Shown here one piece after another: positions 1 to 29,237 of a stretch of DNA of 64,000 nt. The number at the start of each line of letters is the position of its first letter. The first letter of the stretch is position 1. The notes below the pieces were generated by a model. That model did no database searches and had not been told where the DNA came from. It saw nothing but the letters and a program-made list of their open reading frames with translations. Position numbers and translations under genes: made by a program. Source of the stretch: a bacterium (lineage in GTDB: Bacteria; SZUA-79; Acidulodesulfobacterales; Acidulodesulfobacteraceae); contig JAKAQA010000001.1 in the NCBI GenBank assembly GCA_021811805.1, positions 533-64,532 on the forward strand. The letters run 5' to 3'.

Positions 1-2338
1 TTTCGCGGACAAACTTATCTTTATGAAGAATGGGTGTGCCGTCCGGATTTTCGGCATTAACCGGCCACTGTGCCGAACCGTTTTTTTCTAATAAATCATA
101 GCTAACCCCCGCAAACTGAGGCGTTGTAAGGGCGATTTCGTTCATTATTTCGGAAGGATGTCCGTAAGGCATTTCATACCCCATAGCGCCTGAAATTCCT
201 GCAATTACCTGCCAGTCCTGCAACCCGGCAATAGGTTCTATAACCATCCTTACCCTCTGCATCCGCCTCTCCCAGTTAGTAAAAGTCCCGTCTTTTTCAA
301 GAAAAGACGAACCCGGAAGCAAAACATGCGCATACTCGGCGGTTGAAGTTTTAAATAAATCGTGCACCACAACCGTTTCCATATTGCTTAAAGATTCGAT
401 AATCCTGTTGGAATCAGGGTCTGTCTGAACTATATCTTCCCCCATTATATATATTCCCTTAAATCTGCCGTCTAAGCCGCCTCGCAACATATCCGGAAGC
501 CTCATGCCCGGAGCTCTGTCTAATTTTACGCTCCATATTTTTTCAAATACCGCCCTCGCCTTTTCGTCGGAAATATGTCTGTAGCCGGGCAGGGAAGAAG
601 GTTCCGCCCCCATATCCGCCGCTCCCTGCACGTTATTCTGCCCTCTCAAAGGGCTGACGCCTACGCCTTTTTTGCCGATATTTCCGCAAACCATAGCTAA
701 ATTTGCTATGGCAAGAACTCCGGTAGAACCCTGCAAATGTTCGGTTACGCCAAGACCGTAAAATATCGAAGCCTTGCCTGCTTTAGCATAAAGGCCGGCT
801 GCGCACTCTATGTCTTCTTTTGGGATGCCGCTGATTTTTGATGCTGCTTCCGGCGAGTTTGTTTCATTTATTATAAAATCCTTCCATAACCTGAAGGATT
901 CCTCGTCGCATCTTTTTTCTATAAAATCTTTTTTAATTAAATTTTCTTTTAAAATATAATGGGCCATTGCATTAAGAAGTATCACGTTTGTGCCGGGAAG
1001 CGGCCTTAAGTGGTAACGCGCGGCTATATGAGGCGATTTTGAAACCTCGGTTTTTCTGGGATCTATTACTATAATCTCTGCCCCCAGACGCGCCGTTTTT
1101 CTAATGAACGAACCGACTACCGGATGAGCTTCCGTGGGGTTTGAGCCGATAACCATTATAACGTCGGATTCAAACGCCGAACTTAAATCCTGCGTTCCCG
1201 CTCCGGCGCCGAATGCAACTCCAAGTCCGTAACCTGTAGGCTGATGGCAAACCCTCGCACACGTATCGATGTTGTTGTTACGAAAAACTGCTCTTACAAG
1301 TTTCTGCATTAAATAATTTTCTTCATTTGTACACCTCGAAGAACTTATTGCACCTATCGCATTCATTCCATATTTTTCCTGAATTCCCTTAAACTTTTTC
1401 GCAACAAAAACAAAAGCTTCTTCCCATGAAACCTCCTTAAAAGGCAAACCTAAATTTTCCCTTATAAGAGGATATTTAAGCCTCTCGCCGCTCTTGGCAT
1501 AGCCGAAGGAAAATCTGCCTTTAATGCAGGAATGTCCATAGTTTGAAAGGCTTTTGTCGACGGGAACCGCTATTATGATGTTATCTCCTTTTGTTTCCAC
1601 GTTAAACGAACATCCTACCCCGCAGTAGCCGCAGGTCGTTCTTGTTTTTTTAAAAGGCTTGCCGTATTCCACAACGCCTTTCTCGATAAAAGCCCCCGTA
1701 GGACAGGCTTTTACGCACGCGCCGCAGGAAACGCATTCTGAATTGAAAAAACTGTTTTCTTTGCTCCAGCCTGCTTTTATAACGGAATTAAAGCCTCTCC
1801 CTGTAACGGTAAGGGCAAAATTACCCTGAATTTCTGCGCAAGCCCTGACGCATCTTGCGCAGACTATGCACCTTTTGGGGTCGAATAAAAAATACGGGTT
1901 GGAATTGTCAACCGTAAGATTTAAATGGCTTTTTCCTCTGAATCTTATGCCGCTTAAGCCGAAATAAGAAGCCGCGGTCTGAAGTTCGCATATTCCGTTT
2001 TTAAAACAGGTAAGGCAGTCGTTTGGATGGTCGGAAAGGTATAACTCCATTAAAGTTTTTTTATGAGAAAAAAGTTCGTCCGAAAAGGTTTTTATTTTCA
2101 TTCCGCTTTCCGCATATAAGGAACATGACGGCAAGTATCCTTTTTTTCCTTCGACGATAACGCCGCAAAGCCTGCATGAACCGTAAGGAAGCAATCCGCT
2201 GTAATCGCAAAGGGTAGGAATGTAAATGCCGTTTTGTTTCGCGGCTTGCAATACCGTACTGCCATGCTCGGTATTAATGATATTGCCGTCTATTTCAATT
2301 CTTACCCTGTCTTTACAAATTTCGTTTTCGTCGTTCAT
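1..2338 (-). CDS. fdhA: Formate dehydrogenase catalytic subunit, NAD-linked FdsA/FdhA type with NuoG-like Fe-S N-terminus (C-terminal end runs off the window)
   Basis: Absent from the ORF track because it touches the window edge. My translation from ATG 2338 reads MNDENEICKDRVRIEIDGNIINTEHGSTVLQAAKQNGIYIPTLCDYSGLLPYGSCRLCGV (2Fe-2S). It continues with HPNDCLTCFKNGICEL, CIVCARCVRAC and CVSCGACVKACP (4Fe-4S), TTCGYCGVGCSF (MopB Fe-S) and NIDTCARVCHQPTGYG. The last motif has Cys-His at the Mo-ligand position, codon TGC, not TGA. The ATG is 4 nt after the stop of the upstream gene. Confidence 0.85.
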   Translation of the reverse strand, partial: MNDENEICKDRVRIEIDGNIINTEHGSTVLQAAKQNGIYIPTLCDYSGLLPYGSCRLCGVIVEGKKGYLPSCSLYAESGMKIKTFSDELFSHKKTLMELYLSDHPNDCLTCFKNGICELQTAASYFGLSGIRFRGKSHLNLTVDNSNPYFLFDPKRCIVCARCVRACAEIQGNFALTVTGRGFNSVIKAGWSKENSFFNSECVSCGACVKACPTGAFIEKGVVEYGKPFKKTRTTCGYCGVGCSFNVETKGDNIIIAVPVDKSLSNYGHSCIKGRFSFGYAKSGERLKYPLIRENLGLPFKEVSWEEAFVFVAKKFKGIQEKYGMNAIGAISSSRCTNEENYLMQKLVRAVFRNNNIDTCARVCHQPTGYGLGVAFGAGAGTQDLSSAFESDVIMVIGSNPTEAHPVVGSFIRKTARLGAEIIVIDPRKTEVSKSPHIAARYHLRPLPGTNVILLNAMAHYILKENLIKKDFIEKRCDEESFRLWKDFIINETNSPEAASKISGIPKEDIECAAGLYAKAGKASIFYGLGVTEHLQGSTGVLAIANLAMVCGNIGKKGVGVSPLRGQNNVQGAADMGAEPSSLPGYRHISDEKARAVFEKIWSVKLDRAPGMRLPDMLRGGLDGRFKGIYIMGEDIVQTDPDSNRIIESLSNMETVVVHDLFKTSTAEYAHVLLPGSSFLEKDGTFTNWERRMQRVRMVIEPIAGLQDWQVIAGISGAMGYEMPYGHPSEIMNEIALTTPQFAGVSYDLLEKNGSAQWPVNAENPDGTPILHKDKFVRE

Positions 2339-2342
2339 TTTT

Positions 2343-4154
2343 CTAAACTTCTATAATCTCATTTTTATAATAAGTCAGCAGACTTCTAACCGGAATATGC
2401 ATGCCGACTCCAAAACCGCATAAGGACAAGTATTTCATGGATTCCAGAATCTCGTCTATTATTTTTAAATTTTCTTCGGTATTTTGTTTTTTTAAAATCC
2501 TTTCGGACAGTTCTTTTACTCTCACCGTCCCTATTCTACATGGGGCGCATTTGCCGCAGGATTCGTCTATAAAAAAATCAAGGGAACTCAAAAGCCTGTA
2601 TTTAATATCCATCGAATCATCGAAAACGACGATGCCGCCATGACCTAAAATACCTCCTTTTTCGAATACGTCTTCATAGGAAAGCTTCAAATCGAGGAAC
2701 TCGCCGCTTAACGGAAAATATGCGCCGAGAGGCCCGCCTATCTGAACGGTTTTTGCAGTTTCGTCTGCCTCGGCAAGCTTTAAAAGTTCCCTCAGAGTAA
2801 CACCGAAAGGCAATTCAAAAATTCCGGGGTTTTTAACCGCTCCCGAAACCTGAAAAGGCATCGTGCCCTTAGAATTTTCCGTACCTAAAGATAGAAAATA
2901 TTTTAAATTTGAATTATTGTTAAAAATATAAACGGCATAAGCAAACGTCAACACATTATTAAGAACGGTAGGCTTCCCGTATAAACCGCTTACCGCCGGA
3001 ACCGGAGGTCTCTGCCTTACCATTCCCCTTCTGTTCTCGATGCTTTCCATCAATGCTGTTTCTTCTCCGCAAACATAGCTGCCTCCGCCGACTATTAAAT
3101 TAATATCGAATTCCAAGCCGGAACCTAAAATATCTTTGCCGAGATAACCAGCCTTTCTTAATAAATCGATAGCGCTCTCGACTATAAACTTAGCCGTTGC
3201 ATATTCCGCCCTTAAATAAATAAAACCTGATTTAGCTCCTGCTATTAAGCCTGCAATAACCATCCCCTCCATAACCGAGAGCGGGTCGTTTTCCAACAAA
3301 ATTCTGTCGGCATAGGCTCCCGAATCACCTTCGTCGGCATTGCATATTATATATTTATCTTTGGATTGTTCTTTGAAAACAGTTTCCCACTTAATGCCCG
3401 TTGGAAATCCAGCCCCGCCCCTGCCTCTGAGTTTAGAACGTTTCAGTTCATTAATAAATAAAATTTTACCTTCGTCTCCTGCGCTTTTAATTTCATCTAT
3501 GACTCTTTTTAATGCGCTAAACCCGCCTGCGTTTACGTAATCAAAGGAGGATAATGGATTTATATTACCGCACCTTTTAAATACAAGCAGTTCGCCATTC
3601 TTTACTATTTCGGACACATTCGCATCTATATAATTTTCCGGTTTTTTAAAATCGGCGGGATTAACGGAAACTAAATTCTTAATAGGCACGGAAATCATTT
3701 TTATTATTTCGTCGAATACTTCGGACGTAACTTTTTCATATAACAACCCGTCCACCATAACTGCCGGAGAGGCGGCGCAATGTCCGAAACAATAAACGTA
3801 ATCTAAAAAATATTTTCCGTCGGGACTGTATTTGCCGAAATCCAGATTTAAGCTTGTTTTTATATGTTCCAATAATTGTTTTGAACCAGCCGCTTCACAG
3901 CTTTCAGACTTGCAGACGACAATTTTATGATAAATCTTATTATCTGCGGCATCCGTTTTATAATTTCTAAAAAAACTTAGAAAACCGTAAACTTCAGCCT
4001 TAGAGATATTAAGGCTTTCGGCTACCTGCGATACGGCATCTTCGGGTATATAACCAATCTCTTCATTTATACCGTTCAATATATAAAACAAAGAGCCCTG
4101 CCCGCCTTTAGCTTCTTCGGTCAAACGCAAAATCAATTTGCCCTGCTTTTCCAT
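2343..4154 (-). CDS. NuoE-NuoF fusion flavoprotein (FdsG/FdsB-like NAD(H)-FMN-FeS diaphorase module)
   Basis: ORF track gives 2343..4175 from a TTG; the ATG at 4154 (MEKQGKLILRL...) is the more plausible start. The N-terminal part has a NuoE-type 2Fe-2S pattern (CKSESCEAAG ... CFGHCAASPAV). NuoF motifs GRGGAGFPTG (FMN/NADH site) and SCGKCAPCR (4Fe-4S) are present. Confidence 0.85.
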   Translation of the reverse strand: MEKQGKLILRLTEEAKGGQGSLFYILNGINEEIGYIPEDAVSQVAESLNISKAEVYGFLSFFRNYKTDAADNKIYHKIVVCKSESCEAAGSKQLLEHIKTSLNLDFGKYSPDGKYFLDYVYCFGHCAASPAVMVDGLLYEKVTSEVFDEIIKMISVPIKNLVSVNPADFKKPENYIDANVSEIVKNGELLVFKRCGNINPLSSFDYVNAGGFSALKRVIDEIKSAGDEGKILFINELKRSKLRGRGGAGFPTGIKWETVFKEQSKDKYIICNADEGDSGAYADRILLENDPLSVMEGMVIAGLIAGAKSGFIYLRAEYATAKFIVESAIDLLRKAGYLGKDILGSGLEFDINLIVGGGSYVCGEETALMESIENRRGMVRQRPPVPAVSGLYGKPTVLNNVLTFAYAVYIFNNNSNLKYFLSLGTENSKGTMPFQVSGAVKNPGIFELPFGVTLRELLKLAEADETAKTVQIGGPLGAYFPLSGEFLDLKLSYEDVFEKGGILGHGGIVVFDDSMDIKYRLLSSLDFFIDESCGKCAPCRIGTVRVKELSERILKKQNTEENLKIIDEILESMKYLSLCGFGVGMHIPVRSLLTYYKNEIIEV

Positions 4155-4194
4155 TGCGCTATATAATATTTCCAATTTTATATTATTTATATAA

Positions 4195-4205
4195 ATTATA
4201 GCACA
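4195..4205 (-). promoter_or_regulatory. Candidate extended -10 promoter (TGcTATAAT) for the nuoEF-fdhA pair
   Basis: The minus strand reads TGTGCTATAAT in the 178-bp gap between the small-subunit stop (4354) and the nuoEF start. No good -35 hexamer. Confidence 0.3.
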
Positions 4206-4353
4206 TAAACAGGCATAAATTCAGAAATCAAAACGGTACCCGGCGATAAATTTAATGAGGAAATTATTTGCTGACGGGTGCTATGCGGAAACTTGCAATT
4301 TTTCGACAAGGATAAACGAAAGGACAAAAAAGAAGCGCCAATTCAGTATGAAT

Positions 4354-4869
4354 TTAAGAAGTTTTCAGCATATCCATAAATTTTAAAAATCCTGATATTA
4401 TAGCTTCCGGTTCGGGCGGACACCCTTTTATATTCATCGCGACCGTTAAATATTTTGAAACCGGACCGCATACCGAATAGGAATCTTTAAATGGTCCGCC
4501 GGTTTCGGGACAATCTCCCGCCGTAATCACAAATTTGGGCGCCGGAATATTTTCATAAGTCTTTAACAGCGGATTAAGCATATTTCTTGTTATACAGCCG
4601 GTTACCATAATAACATCCGCATGCTTCGGAGAAGCGACAAACTTTATGCCGAATCTTTCTAAATCGTAATAAGGGTTGGAAAGGGCGGCAAGCTCGTTTT
4701 CACAGGCATTGCAGGAGCCGCTGTCCACAAGCCTTACGAATAAACTTCTTCCAAATACCTCGTCAACAGAGCGCTTTAATTCATCTCCTTTTATTAAGAC
4801 AGAATCGCTATTGCCGCTAACAATACTTTGCGTCTTATTTTTAAATAATAATTTACTTAAAAATCCCAT
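4354..4869 (-). CDS. ehrS: Group-4 hydrogenase small-subunit / NuoB-like protein (HycG/HyfI-like), 4Fe-4S ligands retained
   Basis: 171 aa. Motifs DSGSCNACE, GDCPETGG and IKGCPPEPE match the four Cys of the HycG/NuoB proximal cluster. Confidence 0.85.
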   Translation of the reverse strand: MGFLSKLLFKNKTQSIVSGNSDSVLIKGDELKRSVDEVFGRSLFVRLVDSGSCNACENELAALSNPYYDLERFGIKFVASPKHADVIMVTGCITRNMLNPLLKTYENIPAPKFVITAGDCPETGGPFKDSYSVCGPVSKYLTVAMNIKGCPPEPEAIISGFLKFMDMLKTS

Positions 4870-4907
4870 ATATTGTCACCCGTTATAAATATAGAAATTT
4901 CTTATAA

Positions 4908-6413
4908 TCACATATCGTTCCCTGAATAAGATAAATTAAGGCTTTTGTTTATCAAAGGAAAGTCGGCAATTATATTGCCCAATACGCCATATTGAATGGA
5001 CGGCCATATCCTGAACGACGGATCGATATATTTAAGCCTGAAAATTGTTCCGTCATTATCCGCCATAACATAGAAAAAAGCATTGCCCCTAGGCGTTTCA
5101 GAATTCCCCGCCGCATATTTATAAGCTTCCGGCCTATTTTCATAAGCAACGGCAATATCTCCTTTAGGTAAATTAAATAATAAATCGCCGATTATTTTCT
5201 TGGAAACGTAAATTTCTTTAATTCTTAAAGCCGTTCTTGCAAAAACATCTCCGCTTTCAAGTAAAACGGGCTTTAAATTAAACTTATCGTAAATCAGGTA
5301 TGGATACTCGATTCTAGAGTCCCGCGGCAGTCCGGATGCCCTCGCGCTTATTCCGCACAAAGAAAGCTCATCGGCCGTTTTTTTATTAATTTTTCCTGTA
5401 AATTCAAGCCTGTCTAAAACGGTCGATGAATTTACAATAAACGCTTCGCATTCTTTTATGTTTTTTTCGACTTTGTTAATCATATTATCTATGGCCTTAA
5501 GTTTTGAAGAATCAAGGTTGAAATTCACGCCCCCCACGGTTAAGACATTAAACAAAAAACGGTGTCCAGTCAAGCTTTTGTTAAGTCTCATTAATTCTTC
5601 CTGTAATGCAAATAGGCTCTGCGCAGGCAGAGCAAAACCGATATCCATAAAAATCCATGCAACATCTCTGACGTAATTCCATATTCTTTCAAGCTCTGCG
5701 AGTATTACTCTGATATATTTAGCCCTTTCGGTTACTTCAAGGTTTAAAATACTTTCGACGGCCTCAAGATAGCTTATGGTAATATTTACGTTATTGTCTC
5801 CAGAAATCTTTGCGACTAAATCCAGCGCTTCTTTGAAGTCTTTGCCTTCGCAAACTTTCTCTATTCCCCTGTGTTTCCAAAAATGTCTTATTTCAAGCTG
5901 TAAAACCGGCTCCCCCGCAAGCGAAAACCTGAAATGCCCAGGTTCTATAATTCCTGCATGCACCGGTCCGACAAGTACTTCAAAAATTCCTTCTCCCAAA
6001 ACCTTTTTAAACTTATATTCGCCGTATCTCTTCATTTCGGGAATTGAATTATTATAATCCTTTCTTAAAGGATGAAGAGAGGAATTCCAGTTTTCGGGAT
6101 ACAGCATTAAAGGTCTTAAGTCGGGATGTCCGTCTGGCGTAAGCCCGAATAAATCGTATATTTCGCGCTCATACATTTTGGCTGCCGGACAAACTCTAGA
6201 TATAGATTGAAAACTTTCGTCGACTTTGACTGAATATTCGTCTATACTGTTGTTACCGCCGAAAAAATACCTGATGCCAAATTTAGAATTTAAGCTTCTC
6301 TCGTCTGCCGCGGCGATACCAAGCAGATATTTTCCAGACCCTTTGAGATTATCCGCCGAATTTACAAAATCGTTTGATTCGATAATATGTTTGTTAATCA
6401 AAATTTTATCCAT
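4908..6413 (-). CDS. ehrL: NuoC-NuoD/HycE-like large subunit lacking all [NiFe]-binding cysteines (Ehr-type)
   Basis: 501 aa. NuoC-like YEREIYDLFGLTPDGHPDLRPL and hydrogenase-like GPVHAGIIEPGHFRF and HRGIEK are present. The N-terminal CxxC motif is AKISGDNNVNI (nt 5781-5813). The C-terminal DPCxxC motif is SLNLSYSGNDM followed directly by the stop (nt 4908-4943). Confidence 0.85.
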   Translation of the reverse strand: MDKILINKHIIESNDFVNSADNLKGSGKYLLGIAAADERSLNSKFGIRYFFGGNNSIDEYSVKVDESFQSISRVCPAAKMYEREIYDLFGLTPDGHPDLRPLMLYPENWNSSLHPLRKDYNNSIPEMKRYGEYKFKKVLGEGIFEVLVGPVHAGIIEPGHFRFSLAGEPVLQLEIRHFWKHRGIEKVCEGKDFKEALDLVAKISGDNNVNITISYLEAVESILNLEVTERAKYIRVILAELERIWNYVRDVAWIFMDIGFALPAQSLFALQEELMRLNKSLTGHRFLFNVLTVGGVNFNLDSSKLKAIDNMINKVEKNIKECEAFIVNSSTVLDRLEFTGKINKKTADELSLCGISARASGLPRDSRIEYPYLIYDKFNLKPVLLESGDVFARTALRIKEIYVSKKIIGDLLFNLPKGDIAVAYENRPEAYKYAAGNSETPRGNAFFYVMADNDGTIFRLKYIDPSFRIWPSIQYGVLGNIIADFPLINKSLNLSYSGNDM

Positions 6414-7883
6414 TTAAAAAATTATCTTGCCTCCGAATTCATAAGATGCCGATTTTACAATATTTAAAAATTGGGAAGGAATATAAAATAACAATAAAGA
6501 AGAAACCAATAAGAGAATTAACGGGACATATATCATAAAAGGGTGCGCCGCATTTTCGCTTTGGAGTTCATCTGCTCTTTCGTCGCTATCGTTGTTCCCC
6601 GCGTACATTTTAAGAATCTTGCCGAAAAGTCCTATAAAAATAAAAATCAATAGGATAAAAACTAAAAATCCCAATATTATATTGCTTCTAAACACGCCGG
6701 TCATAATGTAAATTTCCCCCAGAAACATTGCAAAAGGGGGCATTCCGCTGATTCCCATAACTCCAAAAAGAAGCACGAGTCCGGTAATAGGAAAATTCTT
6801 AGACAAATTTCTTATTTTTTCGATTTTCCTTTCATGGGTGACCGCAAGAACGTTTCCGGAGGATAAAAACAATAATCCCTTATTCAAAGCATGAAAAAAT
6901 ATCTGGAGGAGGCTTCCTATAACGGCAATTCCTCCTATGCCGAAACCTAATGCGATAATACCCATGTTTTCCATCGAAGAAAATGCGAAAAGCCTCTTAT
7001 AATCGGTCTGTTTTATTATTGAAAAAGCTGAAACCAGAATAGTAAAAAATCCAAAACCTATTAAAAAATACCTTGGGTAATATATGCCTGCCGCCCCGTT
7101 TATCTGATAAAATCTTAAAATGCCCAAAAGCGCCGTATTAAGCAAAACCCCCGACAGTAAAGCGCTGACCGGACTTGGACCCTGCGAATGGGCATCCGGG
7201 AGCCAATTATGCATGGGAGCAAACCCGACTTTCGTCCCAAACCCAACAAGCGCAAGAATAAATGCAAGCATGAGAAAATTTTTGTCTAATTTCGAACCGG
7301 CATGCATAATATTTATAAAAGATAGGGATTTTAAGCTTTCGCCGTAAACCTGCGAAGTCGTGAAATATAGAATAACTATCGCAAAAAGCCCTATCGCTAT
7401 GCCCACCGAACACATAATGACATATTTCCACGTAGCTTCAAAAGATTCTTTGGTCCTATTGAAAGAAACCAATAAAGCCGTGGCCAATGTCGTAGCTTCA
7501 AGGCCTGTCCAGTAGATGCCTAAATTATTCGACAATATCGAAACCATCATACTGAAAACAAATAAATTTTTCCAGAAATAATAAAATTTGAATTTTCTTT
7601 TCGATATGCCGCCCGCTATTTCGGTTCTGACATATCCGAACGAATAAAATGCCACAAACAGTTCAAGGGTCGAAACCGTTATAAGTATGACTAAATTAAT
7701 ATAATCCATAAAGAAAAAACCGCCCAAAAAAATCGTAATGGAATTAAAAGACAGAGCGATTGCTACAACAGCGCAAAATACCAGAACGGATACCGCCAAC
7801 TGCAGATAAGCCATCCATAAAACATCGGCAAAAATTGAAACGATTAAAGCGGCGGCCGGAAGTATCAGTATTAATTCATACAT
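6414..7883 (-). CDS. Antiporter-like membrane subunit (HyfF / NuoN-M-like)
   Basis: 489 aa polytopic protein with the NuoL/M/N signature HNWLPDAHSQGPSPVSALLSGVLL. Abuts the large-subunit gene (its stop at 6414 directly follows that gene's start at 6413). Confidence 0.8.
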   Translation of the reverse strand: MYELILILPAAALIVSIFADVLWMAYLQLAVSVLVFCAVVAIALSFNSITIFLGGFFFMDYINLVILITVSTLELFVAFYSFGYVRTEIAGGISKRKFKFYYFWKNLFVFSMMVSILSNNLGIYWTGLEATTLATALLVSFNRTKESFEATWKYVIMCSVGIAIGLFAIVILYFTTSQVYGESLKSLSFINIMHAGSKLDKNFLMLAFILALVGFGTKVGFAPMHNWLPDAHSQGPSPVSALLSGVLLNTALLGILRFYQINGAAGIYYPRYFLIGFGFFTILVSAFSIIKQTDYKRLFAFSSMENMGIIALGFGIGGIAVIGSLLQIFFHALNKGLLFLSSGNVLAVTHERKIEKIRNLSKNFPITGLVLLFGVMGISGMPPFAMFLGEIYIMTGVFRSNIILGFLVFILLIFIFIGLFGKILKMYAGNNDSDERADELQSENAAHPFMIYVPLILLLVSSLLLFYIPSQFLNIVKSASYEFGGKIIF

Positions 7884-7909
7884 TTTTTGTTTTAATCCTA
7901 TTTAAAAGT

Positions 7910-8527
7910 TTATACGGCAACATTTCTTCTCAGATTTAATATAAGAACGGACAATATAAGTATGCTTACAAAAAGGTCGAAAAGCACGCCTAATTCAACC
8001 AAAAGAGGCATTCCGTGGGTAATGCTGTTAGCCGCCAAAAAAATCGCGTTATCTATCGTCAAAAATCCTATAATCTGAGAAAATAAGGTTTTTCTTGTTA
8101 CCATAAGCATTGCCCCTATTAAAAATGTCGCAAGCGATATAGTAAACACAAAGGAGCCGAACGTTATACCGGTATTGATAATTTTTTGAGCTATCAAATT
8201 GGAAAGCAAAGTTAAAGAGCCTGCGAAAACAACCGCCTCCGGTATGCCTATATACATATCTATTTCTTTATCTATTTTAACCTTTTTAAGCGTTTTAAAT
8301 AAGAAATAAGGTATTAAAATAACTTTAAAAATTACCGTAATAACAAAAGACCCGTATAAATTTATCGAATTAAAATGAACGGCGCCCATTAAAATATAAA
8401 ATGCCAGCATAAGAGACTGAAAAGAATAAAGCTTTATTGCAAATTTTATAAAAGGCGAGCTTACGTTTAATACAACCGAAACAAGTATTAAAATAATAAA
8501 AAGTTCGGCTATTTTTTCCATTATCAT
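7910..8527 (-). CDS. Small polytopic membrane subunit (HyfE-like)
   Basis: 205 aa and very hydrophobic. It lies between the NuoH-like and NuoN-like genes, as hyfE does in hyf operons. The call rests on position and hydrophobicity only. Confidence 0.55.
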   Translation of the reverse strand: MIMEKIAELFIILILVSVVLNVSSPFIKFAIKLYSFQSLMLAFYILMGAVHFNSINLYGSFVITVIFKVILIPYFLFKTLKKVKIDKEIDMYIGIPEAVVFAGSLTLLSNLIAQKIINTGITFGSFVFTISLATFLIGAMLMVTRKTLFSQIIGFLTIDNAIFLAANSITHGMPLLVELGVLFDLFVSILILSVLILNLRRNVAV

Positions 8528-8563
8528 TTTTGAAATTTCCCGCTTATCGAATTAAAAAATAAA

Positions 8564-9544
8564 TTAAAATCCCCTTATCGATAAAATCATCGCTATTAAA
8601 GACAGCATAAAAGAAACCGAAAGCAGGTTCGGCACCCTGAACACCCGCATTTTAGGGCTAACTATTTCGACTCCGGCAATAAGAATGCACAAAATTATCA
8701 TCTTTAGAATGTAAACTATTAAAGACAAGGGGATTTGATAAATATTTACCGCCATATAAGGAAACAATATAAGGGACATTACGGTTAAAAAAACGGTAAG
8801 TTTCAAATAACTCCCGTATTCAAATAAACCAAGATGTTTTCCGCTTGCCTCTAAAATATTTGCTTCATGAAACATCGTAAGTTCAAGATGGGTTTCGGGG
8901 TTATCTACCGGAATCCTTGCGTTTTCGGATATGCCCACTATAAAAAGCGAGATAAACAGCAAAAAGGGAATAGCTATGGATACGGCGTCCGAATTAACGC
9001 CCAATAAAAATGCGTCTGCGGCTCCTTTCTGAATAAAATAAAAAATATCGGTTATTCTGCCCTGCTTTGTATAAATAGCAAGGGATATAAAAATAAATAT
9101 TAAAGATGGCTCCGAAAGAACGGTTAAAAACCATTCTCTGCTCGCCCCCAACCCACCGAAAGCGCTGCCCTGGTCCATTGCGTAAAGGGTCATAAAAAAC
9201 GTCGCGAGCGCAAGAGAATACGCTATTAATATTACGTCGGAGGATACGCCGAGTAAAGAATATCTGTAAAATGCCGGCAACATTAATAAAATAACAAGGT
9301 AGGAAACAAAAACGATATAAGGCGCAATCTCTGATATAAAAGTTGCATCTTTAGATAAAACAATCTCTTTTTTTAATAATTTATTAAAATTTATATAAAA
9401 CTGAAATATATTAATTCCTTTCTGTCCCCTTGCCCGCTGTTTCAATTTATGAATAAAACCCGCAAAAAAGGGTGCAAGAAGGATTATTGTAAAAAATTGA
9501 ATAATTCCTATTATCAAATGTTGAATATTATAATTATAAGTCAT
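8564..9544 (-). CDS. NuoH / HycD / HyfC-like membrane subunit
   Basis: 326 aa polytopic protein with PVDNPETHLELTMFHEANILEASG, the acidic loop typical of HycD/NuoH. Confidence 0.8.
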   Translation of the reverse strand: MTYNYNIQHLIIGIIQFFTIILLAPFFAGFIHKLKQRARGQKGINIFQFYINFNKLLKKEIVLSKDATFISEIAPYIVFVSYLVILLMLPAFYRYSLLGVSSDVILIAYSLALATFFMTLYAMDQGSAFGGLGASREWFLTVLSEPSLIFIFISLAIYTKQGRITDIFYFIQKGAADAFLLGVNSDAVSIAIPFLLFISLFIVGISENARIPVDNPETHLELTMFHEANILEASGKHLGLFEYGSYLKLTVFLTVMSLILFPYMAVNIYQIPLSLIVYILKMIILCILIAGVEIVSPKMRVFRVPNLLSVSFMLSLIAMILSIRGF

Positions 9545-9565
9545 ATCGTTTATATGTACTCTTTA

Positions 9566-11515
9566 TTACCTTATTATGAATATGTATATAATGAAGCAAA
9601 CAATTAACGATAAAAATAAATACCCTAAAGAAACATTTATATTTTGTGAATTAGCCGCTTTATTAAAAATTTCCGATACTTTTAAATATAATTTTTCTGC
9701 AGGAATATAAATATATTTTTCAAAAATATCATTAATTTCTTCGGTATAAACAGATTTAGACCTGAAATACTTTTTTACGTCTTTTTCAAAGTTAATCTCG
9801 GAAACTGAGGAATAAAAAGAGGAAAAAACTTTCATTATGCTTGACGAAAATCCGCCGCCGGAATACTGGGCTTTTGAATTTTTTTCGTCAAGTCCGCATG
9901 CCCATGTTTCGAATATTCTTTTTTTATCGGAAGAAAATAACTTGAGATAGAAAAATACTATCAATAAAACTGCCGCCAAAGCAATTGCTATTAAAGCCGG
10001 GGCATACAAAGAAAACGGGCGAGCGCTTATAATATGTACAGCCGAAAACGGATTTGAGTTTACCGTTCCACCCGTTAAATAAAATATAACGGCATTTAAA
10101 TTTGAAATTATTTGATAAGGATAAATTCCGATATAAATACACAAAAAAACCGGTATCGCGATTCCTATTCTTTCAATAATATTAGGTTCTATAGCATTTT
10201 CTGCATGAACCGTTCTCGGTTTACCTAAAAATGTAATCCCGAACAATTTTGTAAAAGCGGCTCCCGCTGCGGCTCCGCTTAAGGACAGAAGCGCAATGGC
10301 TATAATTGAAAAATACACCATATACAGGTTTCCCGTAAAGACCGAGCCTATCAATGAAATATATAAATACCACTCGCTTAAAAAGCCGTTTAAGGGGGGC
10401 ATGGCGGAAATGGACATTATGCCGATGAGGAACAAGATGGACAACTGCCGCATTTTTTTTGAAAGGCCGCCGAGTTTTTCCATATTTCTGGTATGCGTAT
10501 ATTTATCTATCAATCCCGAGCCCATAAACAGCGAACTTTTGCTTAAACCGTGATTTATTATATGAAGCAAAACCGCCAGCATTGCAAAGTATTCTATGGA
10601 TTTAAAATTCTCTGCCTTTGCCCAGTAGGAAATGCCAATCCCCATAAAAATTATGCCCATATTTTCAATAGTGGAAAATGCCAGCAATTTTTTTATATCC
10701 TTTTGCGCCATTGCATACATAATGCCAAGGAGCGCGGATAAAGCGCCTAAGACGAGAAGTATGATTCCAAGAAAAGGGGCGGATCCTGAACTAAAGACGA
10801 ATAAAAATTTTAAAATACCGTATATAGCCATATTTACCATAATGCCGGACATAATAGCGGATATATTGGCCGGCGCCACCGGATGGGCATAAGGGAGCCA
10901 CGTATGAAACGGCATAATGCCTGCTTTAATGGAAAATCCCGTTATTGCCGCCGCTAATATCATAATCCCGGCGGCGCCTTTATAATAGTCGAAAGAAAAG
11001 GATGAGGTTTTTAAATACAGCATAATAAAACCCGCCGTTATGAGAATAGTTCCTATATGCGTCATCAAAAAATACAAAAAACCCGCCTTCCTTGATTCCT
11101 CGCCTCCTTCATAAATAACCAAAAGAAAAGAAAAAATCGACATTAATTCCCAGAATATTAAAAAAGTCAGCATATCGTTGCTTATAGCAAGGATTATCAT
11201 AGACATTACAAAGAAAAAAGAATAGATAAACAGGGATGGTTTTTTATCGTATTTCTCTCCGTATTTTATTGAAAAAATAGAAATAAATATGGATATAGAC
11301 GATATAAATATTACGAAAAATAGGGAGAGAGCGTCAAATTTGAAAGAAAAATTTATAAAAGAGGATTGTATAATTAATTCGTTTTTAAAACCGTAAATGC
11401 TTAAAACCGTAAAAAATGCGGCGGACAAAATAGACAGACAATTAAAAAAATATCTATATATTCCTTTAAACTTAACCCACCCCCTTAATAAAAATACTCC
11501 GGCAAATAAAGTCAA
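9566..11515 (-). CDS. Antiporter-like membrane subunit (HyfB/HycC / NuoL-like), first gene of the cluster
   Basis: 649 aa with FHTWLPYAHPVAPANISAIMSGIMV. The only in-frame start is TTG at 11515, with no Shine-Dalgarno sequence. Confidence 0.8.
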   Translation of the reverse strand: MTLFAGVFLLRGWVKFKGIYRYFFNCLSILSAAFFTVLSIYGFKNELIIQSSFINFSFKFDALSLFFVIFISSISIFISIFSIKYGEKYDKKPSLFIYSFFFVMSMIILAISNDMLTFLIFWELMSIFSFLLVIYEGGEESRKAGFLYFLMTHIGTILITAGFIMLYLKTSSFSFDYYKGAAGIMILAAAITGFSIKAGIMPFHTWLPYAHPVAPANISAIMSGIMVNMAIYGILKFLFVFSSGSAPFLGIILLVLGALSALLGIMYAMAQKDIKKLLAFSTIENMGIIFMGIGISYWAKAENFKSIEYFAMLAVLLHIINHGLSKSSLFMGSGLIDKYTHTRNMEKLGGLSKKMRQLSILFLIGIMSISAMPPLNGFLSEWYLYISLIGSVFTGNLYMVYFSIIAIALLSLSGAAAGAAFTKLFGITFLGKPRTVHAENAIEPNIIERIGIAIPVFLCIYIGIYPYQIISNLNAVIFYLTGGTVNSNPFSAVHIISARPFSLYAPALIAIALAAVLLIVFFYLKLFSSDKKRIFETWACGLDEKNSKAQYSGGGFSSSIMKVFSSFYSSVSEINFEKDVKKYFRSKSVYTEEINDIFEKYIYIPAEKLYLKVSEIFNKAANSQNINVSLGYLFLSLIVCFIIYIFIIR

Positions 11516-11524: not shown

Positions 11525-11552
11525 ATTATAACAAATGTTTGAAAAATAGCAA
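11525..11552 (-). promoter_or_regulatory. Candidate sigma70-type promoter TTGCTA-16-TGtTATAAT for the membrane-complex operon
   Basis: On the minus strand the -35 TTGCTA is at 11552-11547 and the -10 TATAAT, with an upstream TG, is at 11530-11525. The -10 ends 9 nt before the TTG start. Confidence 0.35.
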
Positions 11553-11564
11553 GAAAAATTTTTA

Positions 11565-13197
11565 CCCCAAAATTGCCGATAGAAATTATTTGCTCCTATC
11601 CTGACCCCTGTTTAAGAGATTTTTTTAGGTAAAATTAATTTTTGGGACTAAAAAAAATAATTTTACTTTTTCCAAAAATTATCTTTTTAAAAAAGGGTCA
11701 TAATTCCACAATTTTATCAAAAAATAGTAGTTTTAAGACATAGTCTTCCCGCCGTTTTTCGAATATGCTAAAAATTGATACCGAAATCTATGCAAATATA
11801 AAACAGTTATCCCTCATACGTTCATAGAGTATAAGTTTATCCACGGTAGAAGCAATAAGAAGGACTAACCGCCTTCCGTGGTTTATCAGCCTGCCCGCTA
11901 TGTTAACAACGGACCATCTGATAGTTTCTATGGTTTTATTTCTAAATTCTTCGGGTAAGAGATGCAGTTTCATTATTACCGTAGTGTTATAGACTAAAAC
12001 TCCTACGGCAAAGAACAGGGCGTTTGCAAAATAATCTCCCGTAGGAATATCTTCCATGCCGAATCCTATTTTTAGCTCTTTTATTGCGTTTTCTATGGAT
12101 ACCCTTTTATTGTATTCATAGATTACTTCTTCTTTCGGGGTGTCTTGGTTAGTCGCTATAACGTGGTAGCAATAAGTATCTTGTTCAAAAAGCCCCGCCT
12201 CTTTTTTAATCCATTTAAGCGCGACTATTCTGAACGGATCTGATTTTTCCATGCAGTATATACTTTCCCCTATTAATCTGTCCGTAACAATGCCGTCCGA
12301 GGTTTTAAATTCCGACCAGTTATCTATTCTTTTAACCTGTTCTTTCATAGAAGAGGTTTTGTCGGCGGATATCGTAAAAGTAACTTTTTTTGACGTTAAA
12401 TATTCTATAACGCAGGAAGAATAGAATTCCGAATCTATGGACACGTGGGTTATTTTTTTACCGGAAAGATTTATGATATTAAATATCTCTTCTAAAACTC
12501 CTACCGTTGCGCCGGATATATTACCGTCTCTGAACTCGTGGAACAATATAATGGGAATTTCGTTTAAAGCGGCTATTATCGGTCTATAGCCTTTAAAACC
12601 CGTATACGATTTTACCGCATCGAATTTGTTTGCTTCTATCATCGTAGGATCTATAAAAAGGGTGTATTCCATATTTTTGTCTAAAGATAAAAGCCTTTTG
12701 TTTATTTCGTATATTACCTTTTTAAATCCGTTAAGACCCGTTTTGCCGAGTCTTCTTAGCCAGTCTCCGTATGTAGAAGAAGACGGGATTTTAATGCCGG
12801 CAAGCTCTGTAATGGTCGTATCGTTTATCAATTCTTTTAAATCTTCAATATGCCTGCCGCCCGAAAATAACATAAGCATTAACGGTATTATATAGAAGGA
12901 AGGCTTGTAGCCCCTGTTGGAAGCAGGAAGAGGCATATATTTGTCTATCAGTAAATCAACGTTTAGTTTTTTTAGCATTTCCGCATAAACTGCAACGCCA
13001 GACCTCGGAGTTATTTTTTCTTTCGTAATTCCCAATTTGAAATTTAATTGCATTTGTTGTAACATATTTATTAACCTCCTTTTTTATTTGTTTTTCACCT
13101 GACGGGTGAATATAATTAGCAATAATTATATCACTGAAAGACAGATAAATAAAGGAGTTTTTTAGTTTTTGGTTAAGTTTCTATCGGCAAATTACAG
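11565..13197 (-). mobile_element. Insertion sequence, IS4 superfamily (IS1380/IS701-like), about 1.63 kb
   Basis: A single transposase ORF is flanked by imperfect inverted repeats: AATTGCCGATAGAAA (11571-11585) and the reverse complement of TTTCTATCGGCAAATT (13178-13193). Exact tips are uncertain and no short target duplication was found. Confidence 0.7.
11788..13065 (-). CDS. DDE transposase (IS4 superfamily)
   Basis: 425 aa. Y-x2-R-x3-E-x6-K signature in YEYNKRVSIENAIKELK. DDE-region blocks TLFIDPTMIEA and VSIDSEFYS. Confidence 0.8.
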   Translation of the reverse strand: MLQQMQLNFKLGITKEKITPRSGVAVYAEMLKKLNVDLLIDKYMPLPASNRGYKPSFYIIPLMLMLFSGGRHIEDLKELINDTTITELAGIKIPSSSTYGDWLRRLGKTGLNGFKKVIYEINKRLLSLDKNMEYTLFIDPTMIEANKFDAVKSYTGFKGYRPIIAALNEIPIILFHEFRDGNISGATVGVLEEIFNIINLSGKKITHVSIDSEFYSSCVIEYLTSKKVTFTISADKTSSMKEQVKRIDNWSEFKTSDGIVTDRLIGESIYCMEKSDPFRIVALKWIKKEAGLFEQDTYCYHVIATNQDTPKEEVIYEYNKRVSIENAIKELKIGFGMEDIPTGDYFANALFFAVGVLVYNTTVIMKLHLLPEEFRNKTIETIRWSVVNIAGRLINHGRRLVLLIASTVDKLILYERMRDNCFIFA

Positions 13198-13217
13198 TTT
13201 ACAGAAAAATTTTTATA

Positions 13218-13387
13218 CCCAAATCCCGATTTAGGAAATATTTAATAAATTCTAATATTTCGTCATTGCGAGCGCAGCTAACCAATCTAAAACGAGATTG
13301 GTTAGCTGCGCTGGACTTCGTCCGCTGCGCTCGCAATGACATTATTAAGTAATCATATATAAATATTTTCAAAATCGGGATTTGGGG
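13218..13387. mobile_element. MITE-like palindromic element, copy A (GTCATTGCGAGCGCAGC hairpin cargo)
   Basis: Terminal inverted repeats CCCAAATCCCGATTTAGGAAATATTTA and TAAATATTTTCAAAATCGGGATTTGGGG. Nested internal hairpins at 13262-13340. Flanked by TTATA at 13213-13217 and 13388-13392. Confidence 0.75.
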
Positions 13388-15445
13388 TTATATTTTTTTA
13401 ACTTCTACCGAAGTCGAGAAAAATGTGGCGCCGCCGCCGATATCCGATAAATCGTCCGGCGTCAAAGCATTTACTCCCGAACCGTTTATATAATCGTCTT
13501 TCCACCATAAACCTGCAGAAACGACCACGCCGGGCAGTATGGAATCCAAAACCTTTGCTTTTATAGATACGCAACCGCGCTCGTTTTCAATCTTTACCGA
13601 ATCTCCATCGCTTATTTCCCTGTCTTCGGCATCCTTCGGATTAATTTCCAGAAAAGGCTCATGCGCTTTGACTTTTAGAGAGGAAACCCCTGCAAAAGAA
13701 GAATTTAAAAAATAGTGATTTGGCGGCGTAACGAGGATTAACGGAAAATCGGTTTCAGGCCGTGAACCCCCGTTTACATTGCCATGACTTAATATGCGCT
13801 CTTTTATAGGCTTGTAATCCGGTATATTTAAAAGTCCGCATAATGCGGCTTTTTCGCTCTTAAACTCGATTTGGCCTGAAGGCGTTGAGAGTTTCCTCCA
13901 TTCAAACGGGCAATCCCCCGTATTTATCATAATAAATCTTTCTTTTTTGAGCCTATCTAACGTTATCCCCTTTTCTTTCCAGTAAGGAATGTCTAATGCC
14001 TGACGCGCAATATCTTCTTCCGTATCTAAAAAACATTCGTCGGCGTAACCTAAAGAACGGGCAATGAGCTTAAATACGTCTATATTCGGTTTGGCTTCGC
14101 CTGCTCTCGGAATTACGGGGTCTGCCCATTGAAGCGAGGTATGCCAGTAGCTTACGTAAAGATCTGCATGTTCAAAACTCACGGTAGCGGGAAGTATAAT
14201 ATCCGCCCATTTTGCGGTATCGGTCATAGCCTGTTCATGAACTACGGTAAAAAGGTCTTCCCTTGCAAGCCCTTTAATGACCAAGTTTTGATTAGGAGCT
14301 ACTACGGCAGGGTTGCTGTTGTAAACATAGAGCGACCTTAAAGGAGGTTCAAGTTCGCACAGAGCTTTTCCAAGCTGAACCATATTTACCGTTCTGACCG
14401 GATTTTTAATTAAATCCGGTCTTTTTAAAGCATCCTCGTTTAAAGGGAAATATCCCGAATTAGATTTTAACGCCCCTCCGCCTTTGTCCAACCATGCTCC
14501 TGTTAATGCCGGCAATAAAGAAATCAACCATGTATTTACGCCGCCGTTTTTATGGTGCTGAAGACCGTTTCCTATTCTTAAAAAACTCGGCTTTGTTTCG
14601 GCGTAAAGCTTTGCCATGCCTTCTATGCGCTCTTTTGAAAGACCTGTAAGACCTGCAACTCTTTCGGGCGGATATTCCATTGCTTTTTTACGAAATTCGT
14701 CAAACCCGTATGAATATTTCTCTAAAAATGCTTTATCTGCCAAATGATCCCTTGATATAATATAAGCTATGCCCAAAGCCAGCGCGCCATCCGAACCGGG
14801 TAGAATCATGTAAAAATCGTCCGCCCACTTTGCCGTTTTATTCCGGTGAACATCTATGGCTATGATTTTAGCTCCGTTTTTGCGGGCCGCATCCGCCAAA
14901 ACAGCATGGTGCATATTTGTTTCTAACGCATTTATCCCCCAGAATATAATTAATTTAGAATTAGCCGTATCTAAAGGATTTACGCCTTTAGACGCGCCGT
15001 AAGCCAGCTGATAGCCTAAACTTCCTGCCGCCGAACAGATAGTGCGGTCAAGAGCCGTAGCGCCTATTTTATTAAAAAGACGCCTGTCCATACTAGATTT
15101 GTTAATTATTCCTTCCGTTCCGCCGTAAGAATAAGGCATAATGCTTTCGGAACCATATTTCGAAATAAGCTCTCTCCAGCGCCCGGCAATTTCATCTATA
15201 GCGCCGTCCCAGCTTATTCTCTCAAATTTACCGCTCCCTTTTTTTCCGGTTCTGCGCATAGGATAAAGTATCCGGTTTTCGCAAATACGTTCGGGATATG
15301 CCCTGACTTTTTCGCAAATGATCCCGCGGGTTACGGGATGCGAAGAATCGCCTCCTACTTTAACTATCATCCCATTTTCTACCTCTACTTTCAAAGCACA
15401 GGTATCGGGACAGTCGTGCGGGCAGACGGAATATTTTACTTCCAT
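13388..15445 (-). CDS. Molybdopterin-dependent oxidoreductase, MopB superfamily, cytoplasmic (no Tat signal); substrate unknown
   Basis: 685 aa. N-terminal 4Fe-4S pattern CPHDCPDTC...C. Typical MopB blocks (IIFWGINALETN, IIAIDVHRN). C-terminal beta-barrel domain (GDSVKIENERG). Confidence 0.75.
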   Translation of the reverse strand: MEVKYSVCPHDCPDTCALKVEVENGMIVKVGGDSSHPVTRGIICEKVRAYPERICENRILYPMRRTGKKGSGKFERISWDGAIDEIAGRWRELISKYGSESIMPYSYGGTEGIINKSSMDRRLFNKIGATALDRTICSAAGSLGYQLAYGASKGVNPLDTANSKLIIFWGINALETNMHHAVLADAARKNGAKIIAIDVHRNKTAKWADDFYMILPGSDGALALGIAYIISRDHLADKAFLEKYSYGFDEFRKKAMEYPPERVAGLTGLSKERIEGMAKLYAETKPSFLRIGNGLQHHKNGGVNTWLISLLPALTGAWLDKGGGALKSNSGYFPLNEDALKRPDLIKNPVRTVNMVQLGKALCELEPPLRSLYVYNSNPAVVAPNQNLVIKGLAREDLFTVVHEQAMTDTAKWADIILPATVSFEHADLYVSYWHTSLQWADPVIPRAGEAKPNIDVFKLIARSLGYADECFLDTEEDIARQALDIPYWKEKGITLDRLKKERFIMINTGDCPFEWRKLSTPSGQIEFKSEKAALCGLLNIPDYKPIKERILSHGNVNGGSRPETDFPLILVTPPNHYFLNSSFAGVSSLKVKAHEPFLEINPKDAEDREISDGDSVKIENERGCVSIKAKVLDSILPGVVVSAGLWWKDDYINGSGVNALTPDDLSDIGGGATFFSTSVEVKKI

Positions 15446-19166: not shown

Positions 19167-19185
19167 CGCTGGATTCGATTCTCCT

Positions 19186-22275: not shown

Positions 22276-22276
22276 T

Positions 22277-24250: not shown

Positions 24251-24351
24251 TTTTTAATATACCTTTTTAAAATTAATTTAAAAATAAATAATGATTAAAT
24301 TTTTTAATTATACATATTGTAAGTAAAAAATTAATTAGATACCAATTTTCA

Positions 24352-25374: not shown

Positions 25375-25421
25375 GAATATTTTTAATTTAATCGACTTAT
25401 TAATCCGCCGGTCTATCGGTA

Positions 25422-25450
25422 ATTATATGCAATAATCGTCTTTTTATCAA
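25422..25450 (-). promoter_or_regulatory. Near-consensus sigma70 promoter TTGATA-17-TATAAT upstream of the RhuM-family gene
   Basis: On the minus strand the -35 is at 25450-25445 and the -10 at 25427-25422, with an exactly 17-nt spacer. It lies about 48 nt upstream of ATG 25374. Confidence 0.55.
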
Positions 25451-25514
25451 CAGGCATTATTCTCCGATATTGGACGGCATTCATATCGGATGGACGGTTA
25501 AATAAGGAAGGATT

Positions 25515-26921: not shown

Positions 26922-26938
26922 AACGGCATAAAGCTGAA

Positions 26939-28492: not shown

Positions 28493-28514
28493 AAAGTCTC
28501 CTTTTTTATGAAAA

Positions 28515-28745
28515 TTAATATAGATGTTTGTGAACAGGGTCAAATCCGCCTTTAGAGAGCGGATTACACCTGATAATCCTATAAATAGACATGTATAGGG
28601 CCTTAATAAAACCGAACGACTCAAAGCATTCGACCGCGTATTCGGAACAGGTAGGATAAAACCTGCAGCTTTGGGGCAATAACGGAGATAAAAACTTTTT
28701 ATAAGAAATTATCAGCAGTATAAAAAATTTATTTAACATCTTCAT
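28515..28745 (-). CDS. yidD: Membrane protein insertion efficiency factor YidD
   Basis: 76 aa with CRFYPTCSEYA and the conserved position between rnpA and yidC. Confidence 0.9.
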   Translation of the reverse strand: MKMLNKFFILLIISYKKFLSPLLPQSCRFYPTCSEYAVECFESFGFIKALYMSIYRIIRCNPLSKGGFDPVHKHLY

Positions 28746-29068: not shown

Positions 29069-29087
29069 CTTAACGCATAAAACTTAT

Positions 29088-29237
29088 TTATTTAGAACTA
29101 ATTACCGGGACCAGTATTTTGCGCCCCTTTCTCCTGCGTCTCGATAAAACCAATCTTCCGTTCTTTGTGCTCATTCTGCTCAAAAAACCGTGGGTTCTTT
29201 TTCTCTTTAATTTACTTGGCTGAAATGTGCGTTTCAT
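29088..29237 (-). CDS. rpmH: 50S ribosomal protein L34
   Basis: Below the track length cutoff. My translation is [49 protein letters not shown], a textbook L34. Confidence 0.93.

Follow-up and report, generated by a model that had tools for sequence, protein, structure and literature searches.

Ehr genes beside a fused NAD-linked formate dehydrogenase in Candidatus Acidulodesulfobacterales: two probably independent neighbours

Gene organization of the locus

Eight co-directional genes on the minus strand occupy the first 11.5 kb of a 64,000 nucleotide (nt) stretch of DNA from a member of Candidatus (Ca.) Acidulodesulfobacterales (contig JAKAQA010000001.1, positions 533–64,532; the window). 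The six upstream genes are identified as a typical Ehr cluster (Ech / energy-converting hydrogenase-related), i.e. HyfB-, NuoH-, HyfE-, HyfF-, NuoCD- and NuoB-like. The two genes downstream, a nuoE-nuoF fusion (nuoEF) and fdhA, are identified as an Fds-type NAD-dependent formate dehydrogenase in which FdsG is fused to FdsB and FdsA is fused to FdsD. The two units are probably independent systems of known type, a soluble formate dehydrogenase and a stand-alone Ehr, that lie next to each other in one lineage and may be co-transcribed. Table 1 shows the features and their positions. Compared loci carry L numbers.

The open reading frame (ORF) coordinates and the Pfam and NCBIfam matches agree with an initial annotation of this DNA as to the eight co-directional genes, their identities and the intergenic gaps of 0–38 nt in the Ehr block. 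The fdhA start is 4 nt from the nuoEF stop codon. The position of ehrE is conserved in Ehr clusters. The TTG start of ehrL at 11515 is uncertain, and the calls in relatives (L088 and L001) are 10–29 codons shorter. The start of nuoEF is at ATG 4154; this Met is the first residue of a 100% match to the database protein P0121, and the relatives begin there too. The junction between ehrB and nuoEF is therefore 199 nt and not 178 nt as initially given.

L088, a 15-kb contig of this organism, is 100% identical and displays the complete fdhA gene, with a translated sequence of 995 amino acids (aa). Beyond fdhA in L088 is a hemerythrin gene on the opposite strand, thus the gene run ends at fdhA. A NuoI-type or HycB/HycF-type gene is not found in the cluster or after fdhA, as the initial annotation had stated for a NuoI homologue and poly-ferredoxins of the HycB/HycF type, and FdhA is the only ORF in or beside the cluster with a CxxCxxCxxxC motif.

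Table 1. Features in the Ehr-Fds region of the window
Feature	Position	Strand	Evidence and remarks
fdhA (fdsA)	1..2338	minus	5′ 779 of 995 codons; window edge cuts the rest
nuoE-nuoF fusion (fdsG-fdsB)	2343..4154	minus	603 aa from ATG 4154; alternative start 4175
ehrB/nuoEF junction	4155..4353	minus	199 nt; sequence reads and blastn
ehrB, NuoB-like small subunit	4354..4869	minus	171 aa; Pfam Oxidored_q6; NCBIfam NuoB subfamily, 119.7 bits
ehrCD, NuoC-NuoD / hydrogenase large-subunit homologue	4908..6413	minus	Pfam Complex1_30kDa and Complex1_49kDa
ehrN, HyfF/NuoN-like antiporter-like subunit	6414..7883	minus	Proton_antipo_M; hydrogenase 4 subunit F models, ~350 bits
ehrE, HyfE-like membrane subunit	7910..8527	minus	NCBIfam PRK11492, E = 2e-19, under the curated cut-off
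ehrH, NuoH-like membrane subunit	8564..9544	minus	Pfam NADHdh, 105 bits
ehrL, HyfB/NuoL-like antiporter-like subunit	9566..11515	minus	NCBIfam hydrogenase 4 subunit B, 524 bits; Pfam Proton_antipo_M
Promoter-like site	11525..11552	minus	TTGCTA, 16 nt, TATAAT, with TG before; just upstream of ehrL; consensus match only
IS1380-family element	11564..13388	minus	Transposase ORF 11788..13065; ends ACCCCAAA / TTTGGGGT, inverted repeat; NCBIfam transpos_IS1380, 228 bits (cut-off 180)
Putative cytoplasmic Mo/W-bisPGD oxidoreductase	13388..15445	minus	Pfam Molybdop_Fe4S4, Molybdopterin, Molydop_binding; all NCBIfam matches under their cut-offs

The Fds-type formate dehydrogenase

The FdhA sequence, even as truncated by the window edge, scores 695 bits with the TIGR01591 model (cut-off 666). 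It displays the Pfam domains Fer2_4, NADH-G_4Fe-4S_3, Molybdop_Fe4S4 and Molybdopterin, i.e. an iron-sulfur (Fe-S) N-terminal region of the NuoG type, which has the His-ligated cluster motif, and a domain for molybdenum bis(pyranopterin guanine dinucleotide) (Mo-bisPGD). The full-length protein aligns with Rhodobacter capsulatus FdsA (6TG9) over residues 12–914 with a score of 1040 bits. The active-site Cys-His, Arg and Lys positions are conserved with respect to 6TG9, as are the motifs CARVCH, PLRGQNNVQG and GHSCxKGRF. The enzyme is of the Cys type, where CARVCHQPTG aligns with CARVCHSPTG of R. capsulatus FdsA. An FdsD domain (PF11390) is at the C-terminal end of FdhA in L088, L089, L090 and L093, and this domain falls outside of the window.

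The nuoEF fusion displays the Pfam domains 2Fe-2S_thioredx, Complex1_51K and NADH_4Fe-4S, which represent a [2Fe-2S] cluster, a site for flavin mononucleotide (FMN) and NAD(H), and an N3-type [4Fe-4S] cluster. NCBIfam assigns the NuoE part to the formate dehydrogenase gamma subunit and the remainder to NuoF. The NuoF part scores 380 bits with FdsB of Cupriavidus necator (6VW7) and 342 bits with FdsB of R. capsulatus, and the motifs GRGGAGFPTG and ESCGKCxPCR are invariant in the FdsB part. The initial annotation of a Cys-type (VCH) formate dehydrogenase with a NuoG-like Fe-S N-terminus and an FMN/NAD(H) module is borne out by the Pfam domains and the 6TG9 alignment.

All domains and cofactor motifs of FdsGBAD from R. 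capsulatus (6TG9/6TGA) and FdsABG from C. necator (6VW7) are matched here. Unlike FdsGBAD, FdsG is fused with FdsB and FdsD is fused to the C-terminal end of FdsA; in addition, fdsC or fdhD genes were not seen adjacent. The FdsG-FdsB and FdsA-FdsD fusions are found in stand-alone homologues as well. With the fused FdsD and the other domains, the two genes thus cover all components of the soluble NAD+-dependent enzymes of known structure. Alignments of FdhA and NuoEF show no insertions or deletions that separate the Ehr-adjacent copies from the stand-alone copies. From these properties we infer a complete and self-sufficient formate dehydrogenase, soluble and NAD+-reducing. Formate would be oxidised at the Cys-ligated bis-PGD site, with electrons passing along the Fe-S chain of the NuoG-like part to FMN in FdsB and then to NAD+. 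The reaction may also run in reverse. In an acidophile such an enzyme may serve in removal of formic acid with a yield of NADH.

Clusters of 11-subunit nuo genes without nuoE, nuoF and nuoG have been reported in Ca. Acidulodesulfobacterales (Tan et al. 2019; PMC6776010). FdsGBA is homologous to NuoEFG, and FdsGB and FdsA might be taken for the missing N-module of such an 11-subunit Nuo complex, with Ehr unrelated to it. This is very improbable. A nuo cluster is not present in the window or beside the fds genes in any locus examined, and the formate-oxidising site is intact and FdsD is retained, as in the free enzymes. In the analysis the window was placed in this order from the source names of two homologues, which point to Ca. 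Acidulodesulfobacterales of acid mine drainage.

The Ehr module

Ehr complexes include GSU0739-45 of Geobacter sulfurreducens and those surveyed by Marreiros et al. 2013. The cluster in the window has the six-subunit make-up of Ehr complexes, with a large subunit that is devoid of both CxxC motifs, and its gene order is as in dozens of Ehr loci; the six core genes are arranged in this way in many different phyla.

In addition to the domains listed in Table 1, EhrCD displays a short NiFeSe_Hases match. The best match among solved proteins is E. coli HycE (7Z0S, 202 bits), and MbhL (6CFW) scores 137 bits. Alignment to HycE shows that the four Cys ligands of the NiFe site are replaced by S204, N207, S495 and G498 and both CxxC motifs are gone, which confirms that the NiFe site is lost in the NuoCD-like subunit as initially proposed. 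The quinone-site residues Y87 and H38 of Thermus thermophilus Nqo4 align to G205 and I156 of EhrCD. The pocket motifs SGD and LSY(S/A)GND show little or no variation among 14 relatives, the most distant with 41% identity, and in ~66 species-representative loci. The replacements of the NiFe ligands are therefore not random decay.

EhrB has all four Cys residues of an N2-type [4Fe-4S] cluster (C53, C56, C120 and C150) and no fused NuoI-like domain. Thus the Ehr module is not "cofactor-less", the term that had been used for it. The N2-type Cys residues are retained in about 45–49 of ~70 Ehr-type EhrB sequences and are lost in about 10–15. In the copies that have lost them (alignment L005–L083) D, E or N is found instead. 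Ehr complexes of this latter kind would be without any predicted redox cofactor, and it may be asked whether every Ehr complex is a redox enzyme. In the alignment of EhrN with E. coli NuoL, the Glu in transmembrane helix (TM) 5, the Lys in TM7, the His/Lys in TM8 and the Glu in TM12 are conserved.

A NuoI-like part with two [4Fe-4S] clusters is missing in ~60 of 68 Ehr loci by a census of lengths and ferredoxin motifs. The exceptions are four Firmicutes loci where it is fused to EhrB and four loci with a small separate ferredoxin. Ehr of Firmicutes and Margulisbacteria with a NuoI-like domain fused to NuoB differs in this from the cluster in the window. The absence of NuoI had been regarded as a feature of this locus; it is instead a general trait of Ehr, which is not compensated here.

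By its sequence the Ehr module would presumably have no hydrogenase activity and carry out redox-driven ion translocation. As a stand-alone complex it would contain a single [4Fe-4S] cluster, of the N2 type, in EhrB, while the former NiFe pocket of EhrCD is remodelled and the charged residues of the two antiporter-like subunits are intact. Such a complex presumably couples a redox reaction to translocation of ions, and its partner would probably be a separately encoded soluble carrier that docks at the place of NuoI in complex I. A 2023 paper still refers to the function of Ehr as unknown (PMC10284858).

The locus has likenesses to two further systems. With respect to formate hydrogenlyase (E. 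coli FHL-1 Hyc, 7Z0S, and Hyf), HycE is the best solved match to EhrCD, the membrane subunits are Hyf-like and a formate dehydrogenase gene is nearby. However, there is no NiFe site and no HycB/HycF, and the formate dehydrogenase is of the NAD-linked Fds type and not a monomeric FdhF. The likeness to complex I consists of homologues of NuoE, F, G, B, C, D, H, L and N in a single co-directional run. In contrast to complex I, the locus has no NuoI, A, J or M, the NuoD-like part does not retain the Tyr and His of the quinone site, and the NuoG homologue appears to be a formate dehydrogenase of the active type.

Distribution of Ehr and Fds genes across genomes

Two scans were made, each a sample of the nearest relatives. 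A scan of species-representative genomes with EhrCD gave more than 600 matches, and the best 80 were analyzed with 10-kb flanks. Thirteen of these are true hydrogenases with CxxC motifs and ~66 are of the Ehr type. A scan of metagenomes with the NuoEF fusion also gave more than 600 matches, and the best 80 together with four other loci make up 84 Fds-type loci.

Outside the clade, not one of the ~66 Ehr-type loci has an FdhA or NuoEF homologue or a molybdopterin enzyme within 10 kb. When the flanking ORFs of the EhrCD-scan loci were all clustered, no family of neighbours recurred other than the six core genes. A full-length fdhA gene is directly downstream of nuoEF in ~45 of the 84 Fds-type loci, and EhrB, EhrCD, EhrH or EhrE is near Fds in none of the 84.

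Adjacent and co-directional Ehr and Fds genes are found in at least six distinct loci of the clade, i.e. the window/L088, L178, L001/L002, L089, L090-92 and L179, where NuoEF is 73–100% identical to that of the window. Ehr clusters elsewhere differ from those of this clade, which are flanked by a molybdoenzyme gene and the Fds-type formate dehydrogenase. Among the loci examined, the adjacency is confined to this one clade, probably Ca. Acidulodesulfobacterales.

The two modules also occur apart in near relatives. L177 is as close to the window as several of the Ehr-adjacent loci (FdhA 81%, NuoEF 70% and Nramp 90% identity), and here nuoEF-fdhA is beside the Nramp gene with the molybdoenzyme and Ehr genes absent. 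In L084, the next relative with respect to Ehr (EhrCD 67%), the six ehr genes are beside mnmG and there is no formate dehydrogenase, and L086 (54%) has Ehr alone. The next Fds relative, L093 (NuoEF 56%, from the same sequencing project), has Fds alone with glyoxalase and carbonic anhydrase genes in its flanks. Fds is alone in L095 as well. The conserved synteny across genomes that had been suggested as a check of a joint system is thus not seen, i.e. the linkage is absent from all the Ehr and Fds loci examined outside the clade and from L177, L084 and L093.

An FDH-Ehr (formate dehydrogenase-Ehr) complex was proposed in 2019 for Riflemargulisbacteria and Saganbacteria (Matheus Carnevali et al.; PMC6349859), thus the idea in the initial annotation had already been published. 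The proposal has the same pairing as seen here, Ehr with a NuoE/NuoF-associated FdhA as the candidate partner for electron input. The basis given is the need of Ehr for a donor, together with the presence of fdhA-nuoEF regions in genomes that have Ehr. The modules there appear to be in separate regions, with NuoI fused to NuoB, whereas here the modules are adjacent and there is no NuoI-like part. Ehr and a NuoEF-associated FdhA occur together in one genome in the window and at least five further clade loci. The adjacency is a new supporting instance of the FDH-Ehr idea, restricted to one shallow clade, and not a conserved linkage.

The junction between the modules

L178 is the closest relative with a long contig, and its Ehr proteins are 95–100% identical to those of the window. 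The distance from the ehrB stop codon to the nuoEF ATG in L178 is ~33 nt and there is no promoter box. The window has a segment of 166 nt (positions 4185..4350) at the exact point of the L178 junction, which is absent from L178. Upstream of nuoEF the window and L178 have 44 nt in common, and the segment is inserted between these and the ehrB stop codon. Blastn of the gap against the compared loci gave no match to the segment beyond this organism and its duplicate contig, L088. The extended -10 box, TGCTATAAT (4195..4203), falls within the 166-nt segment. The box had been offered as a sign that the modules may be independent; it is present in the gap as described, but its location is in a lineage-specific insert and the gap in L178 is ~33 nt.

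A terminator-like hairpin was not found in the junction, and the RNA fold of the junction is no stronger than that of shuffled sequences (z = -0.1). The regions upstream of nuoEF from four relatives, when aligned, are AT-rich and too poorly conserved for a shared promoter. As there is no terminator in the junction, read-through from ehr to fds is plausible. Co-transcription of ehr and fds appears plausible in the window and likely in L178 from the layout of the junctions.

The same slot in other loci of the clade contains mercury genes: merA (mercuric reductase) in L089 (8033-9733), L090-92 (8197-9897) and L179 (8465-9742), with 512 bits for TIGR02053 (cut-off 454), and hgcA-hgcB (mercury methylation) in one lineage, L001/L002 (L001 12157-13514; 390 bits against a cut-off of 275 and 116 against 99). 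L178 has merR, a gene for a heavy-metal-associated protein and merA downstream of fdhA instead. A 97-aa ferredoxin in the L001 slot was considered as a substitute for NuoI and was ruled out, as it is HgcB paired with HgcA.

An unrelated Ehr cluster in a Bacillota metagenome-assembled genome (L039 9000-10560, JAEWQC010000214.1) displays convergent hgcB-hgcA genes right after ehrB, with a 146-aa ORF that ends in Cys-Cys intervening between ehrB and hgcB-hgcA. Two independent Ehr/hgcAB neighbourhoods in ~70 loci is far above chance by a rough estimate. Ehr and hgcAB are not known to be linked.

The gene order of the clade is kept despite the junction insertions. Together with the short spacer in L178, the lack of a terminator and the response of the Geobacter Ehr proteins to formate (see below), this favors a functional pair that does not form a stable complex. 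The two units would be co-transcribed or co-regulated and take part in the same physiology, e.g. the handling of formate, CO2 or pH at low pH. This is possible, but unlikely. The linkage is not found in the loci examined outside the clade or in L177, and the clade is shallow (70–100% identity), where common descent may by itself account for a shared order. The region is also a flexible one, with an insertion sequence (IS) element, restriction-modification genes and metal-resistance genes. An equally tentative division of labour for such a pair is that the formate dehydrogenase makes or consumes NADH and Ehr serves in ion balance or in the turnover of a diffusible carrier.

The upstream region and genomic setting

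The promoter-like box of ehrL is conserved in L178, in the spacer between the molybdoenzyme gene and ehrL. A promoter scan is at chance level (58 boxes against 53 expected), and single boxes are leads only. An Rfam scan of the whole window detected no riboswitch or RNA gene, including no molybdenum cofactor (Moco) riboswitch. The insertion point of the IS1380 element is between the molybdoenzyme stop codon and the ehrL promoter-like box. The same spacer is uninterrupted in relatives and has a length of ~90–100 nt. The L088 contig ends within the IS1380 element.

The molybdoenzyme directly precedes Ehr throughout the clade and is never found in the other Ehr loci among the best 80 matches. Its sequence displays an N-terminal [4Fe-4S] motif and a ligand motif of the Cys-Ser type (TICSAAG), not Cys/selenocysteine-His. 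The nearest solved proteins are FdhF of hydrogen-dependent CO2 reductase and acetylene hydratase, and the alignment is good only in the N-terminal ~320 residues. This enzyme was considered as an FdhF-like partner of Ehr, in a layout similar to formate hydrogenlyase, and was ruled out based on the Cys-Ser ligand and on scores far under the cut-offs of the formate dehydrogenase models.

The dnaA-dnaN-gyrB origin region falls within the window, as do a restriction-modification block and the IS element. The origin region, positions 17352-34955, contains mnmG, mnmE, yidC, dnaA (29557-31008), dnaN and gyrB. Inserted between mnmE and mnmG are a RhuM-family gene and a restriction-modification pair of type III (19186-25374). 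In L084, mnmE and mnmG are ~1 kb apart with only a 90-aa ORF and a nitroreductase gene between them. The neighbourhoods in relatives add MerR, heavy-metal-associated proteins and ars genes. The Ehr-Fds neighbourhood is a flexible region near oriC.

Additional genes in the window are at positions 37169-42645 and 60631-61668. These encode subunits of a 2-oxoacid:ferredoxin oxidoreductase and succinyl-CoA synthetase, a possible source of reduced ferredoxin. A MoaA gene (molybdenum cofactor synthesis) is also among these genes.

Interpretation of the Ehr-Fds arrangement

That the formate dehydrogenase and Ehr form a physical complex is quite unlikely. FdsGB and FdsAD would dock on EhrB/EhrCD as NuoEFG does on the Q-module of complex I. 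The path of electrons proposed for it, to be held with similar doubt, would be from formate or NADH to the [4Fe-4S] cluster of EhrB and then to an acceptor in the remodelled pocket, driving ion translocation. Fds docked directly on EhrB/EhrCD with no bridge of the NuoI type would amount to an ion pump driven by formate or NADH, resembling complex I minus the connecting ferredoxin subunit, and this too is improbable. A complex would accord with the co-directional adjacency across the clade, with modules ~33 nt apart in L178 and a gap that has no terminator. Ehr is without an input module, EhrB retains its cluster ligands and the antiporter-like subunits their key residues. The N-terminal region of FdsA is NuoG-like and has the His-ligated cluster motif, and there is the published hypothesis (PMC6349859) together with a tie between Ehr abundance and formate in Geobacter (PMC7894505). 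On the other side, the linkage is found in 0 of ~66 other Ehr loci and 0 of 84 other Fds loci (from the best 80 among more than 600 matches per scan), L177, L084 and L093 do not have the modules linked, and unrelated genes are inserted at the junction. Every solved relative uses a NuoI-type bridge to reach the N2 cluster and none is present here. Moreover, the full NAD/FMN site and FdsD are retained as in free soluble enzymes, and FdsA and FdsGB have no Ehr-specific insertions or deletions.

The single formate- and/or NADH-linked ion-translocating complex of the initial annotation thus has the gene identities and the adjacency in the clade in its favor, but has no linkage in the loci examined outside the clade. 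Its fallback, i.e. independence of the modules, is better supported by the synteny outside the clade and the self-sufficiency of Fds. A soluble Fds-type formate dehydrogenase and a stand-alone Ehr that are independent, and neighbours in one lineage, is what we consider probable. Consistent with independence, ehrL has a conserved promoter-like box of its own, a consensus match only. The adjacency would be a lineage-specific arrangement in the flexible region near oriC, and the units may share a transcript by read-through.

Several points weigh against independence. The junction in L178 is short and has no promoter box, the junction in the window has no terminator-like hairpin, and the co-directional order is found in at least six distinct loci. 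A module for electron input is not encoded in the Ehr cluster itself, and FdsGBA is homologous to the N-module of complex I. The survey covers the best 80 of more than 600 matches per scan. An FDH-Ehr complex has been proposed in the literature (PMC6349859), and in G. sulfurreducens the Ehr subunits are more abundant on formate than with hydrogen, from which a functional link was suggested (PMC7894505).

Ehr occurs in many phyla of bacteria and archaea, and a formate dehydrogenase as its partner was suggested previously from genome co-occurrence and one proteomics study. The comparative result lowers expectations, as the linkage is not conserved, the absence of NuoI is general and the formate dehydrogenase resembles free NAD-linked enzymes. 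If the modules are independent, the locus is a matter of ordinary annotation, i.e. one more Ehr and one more Fds. Direct docking, if true, would be a living analogue of an evolutionary intermediate of complex I and would give Ehr its first assigned electron donor. The direct adjacency, with ~33 nt between the modules in L178, makes the idea of a formate dehydrogenase partner testable in acid-mine-drainage communities.

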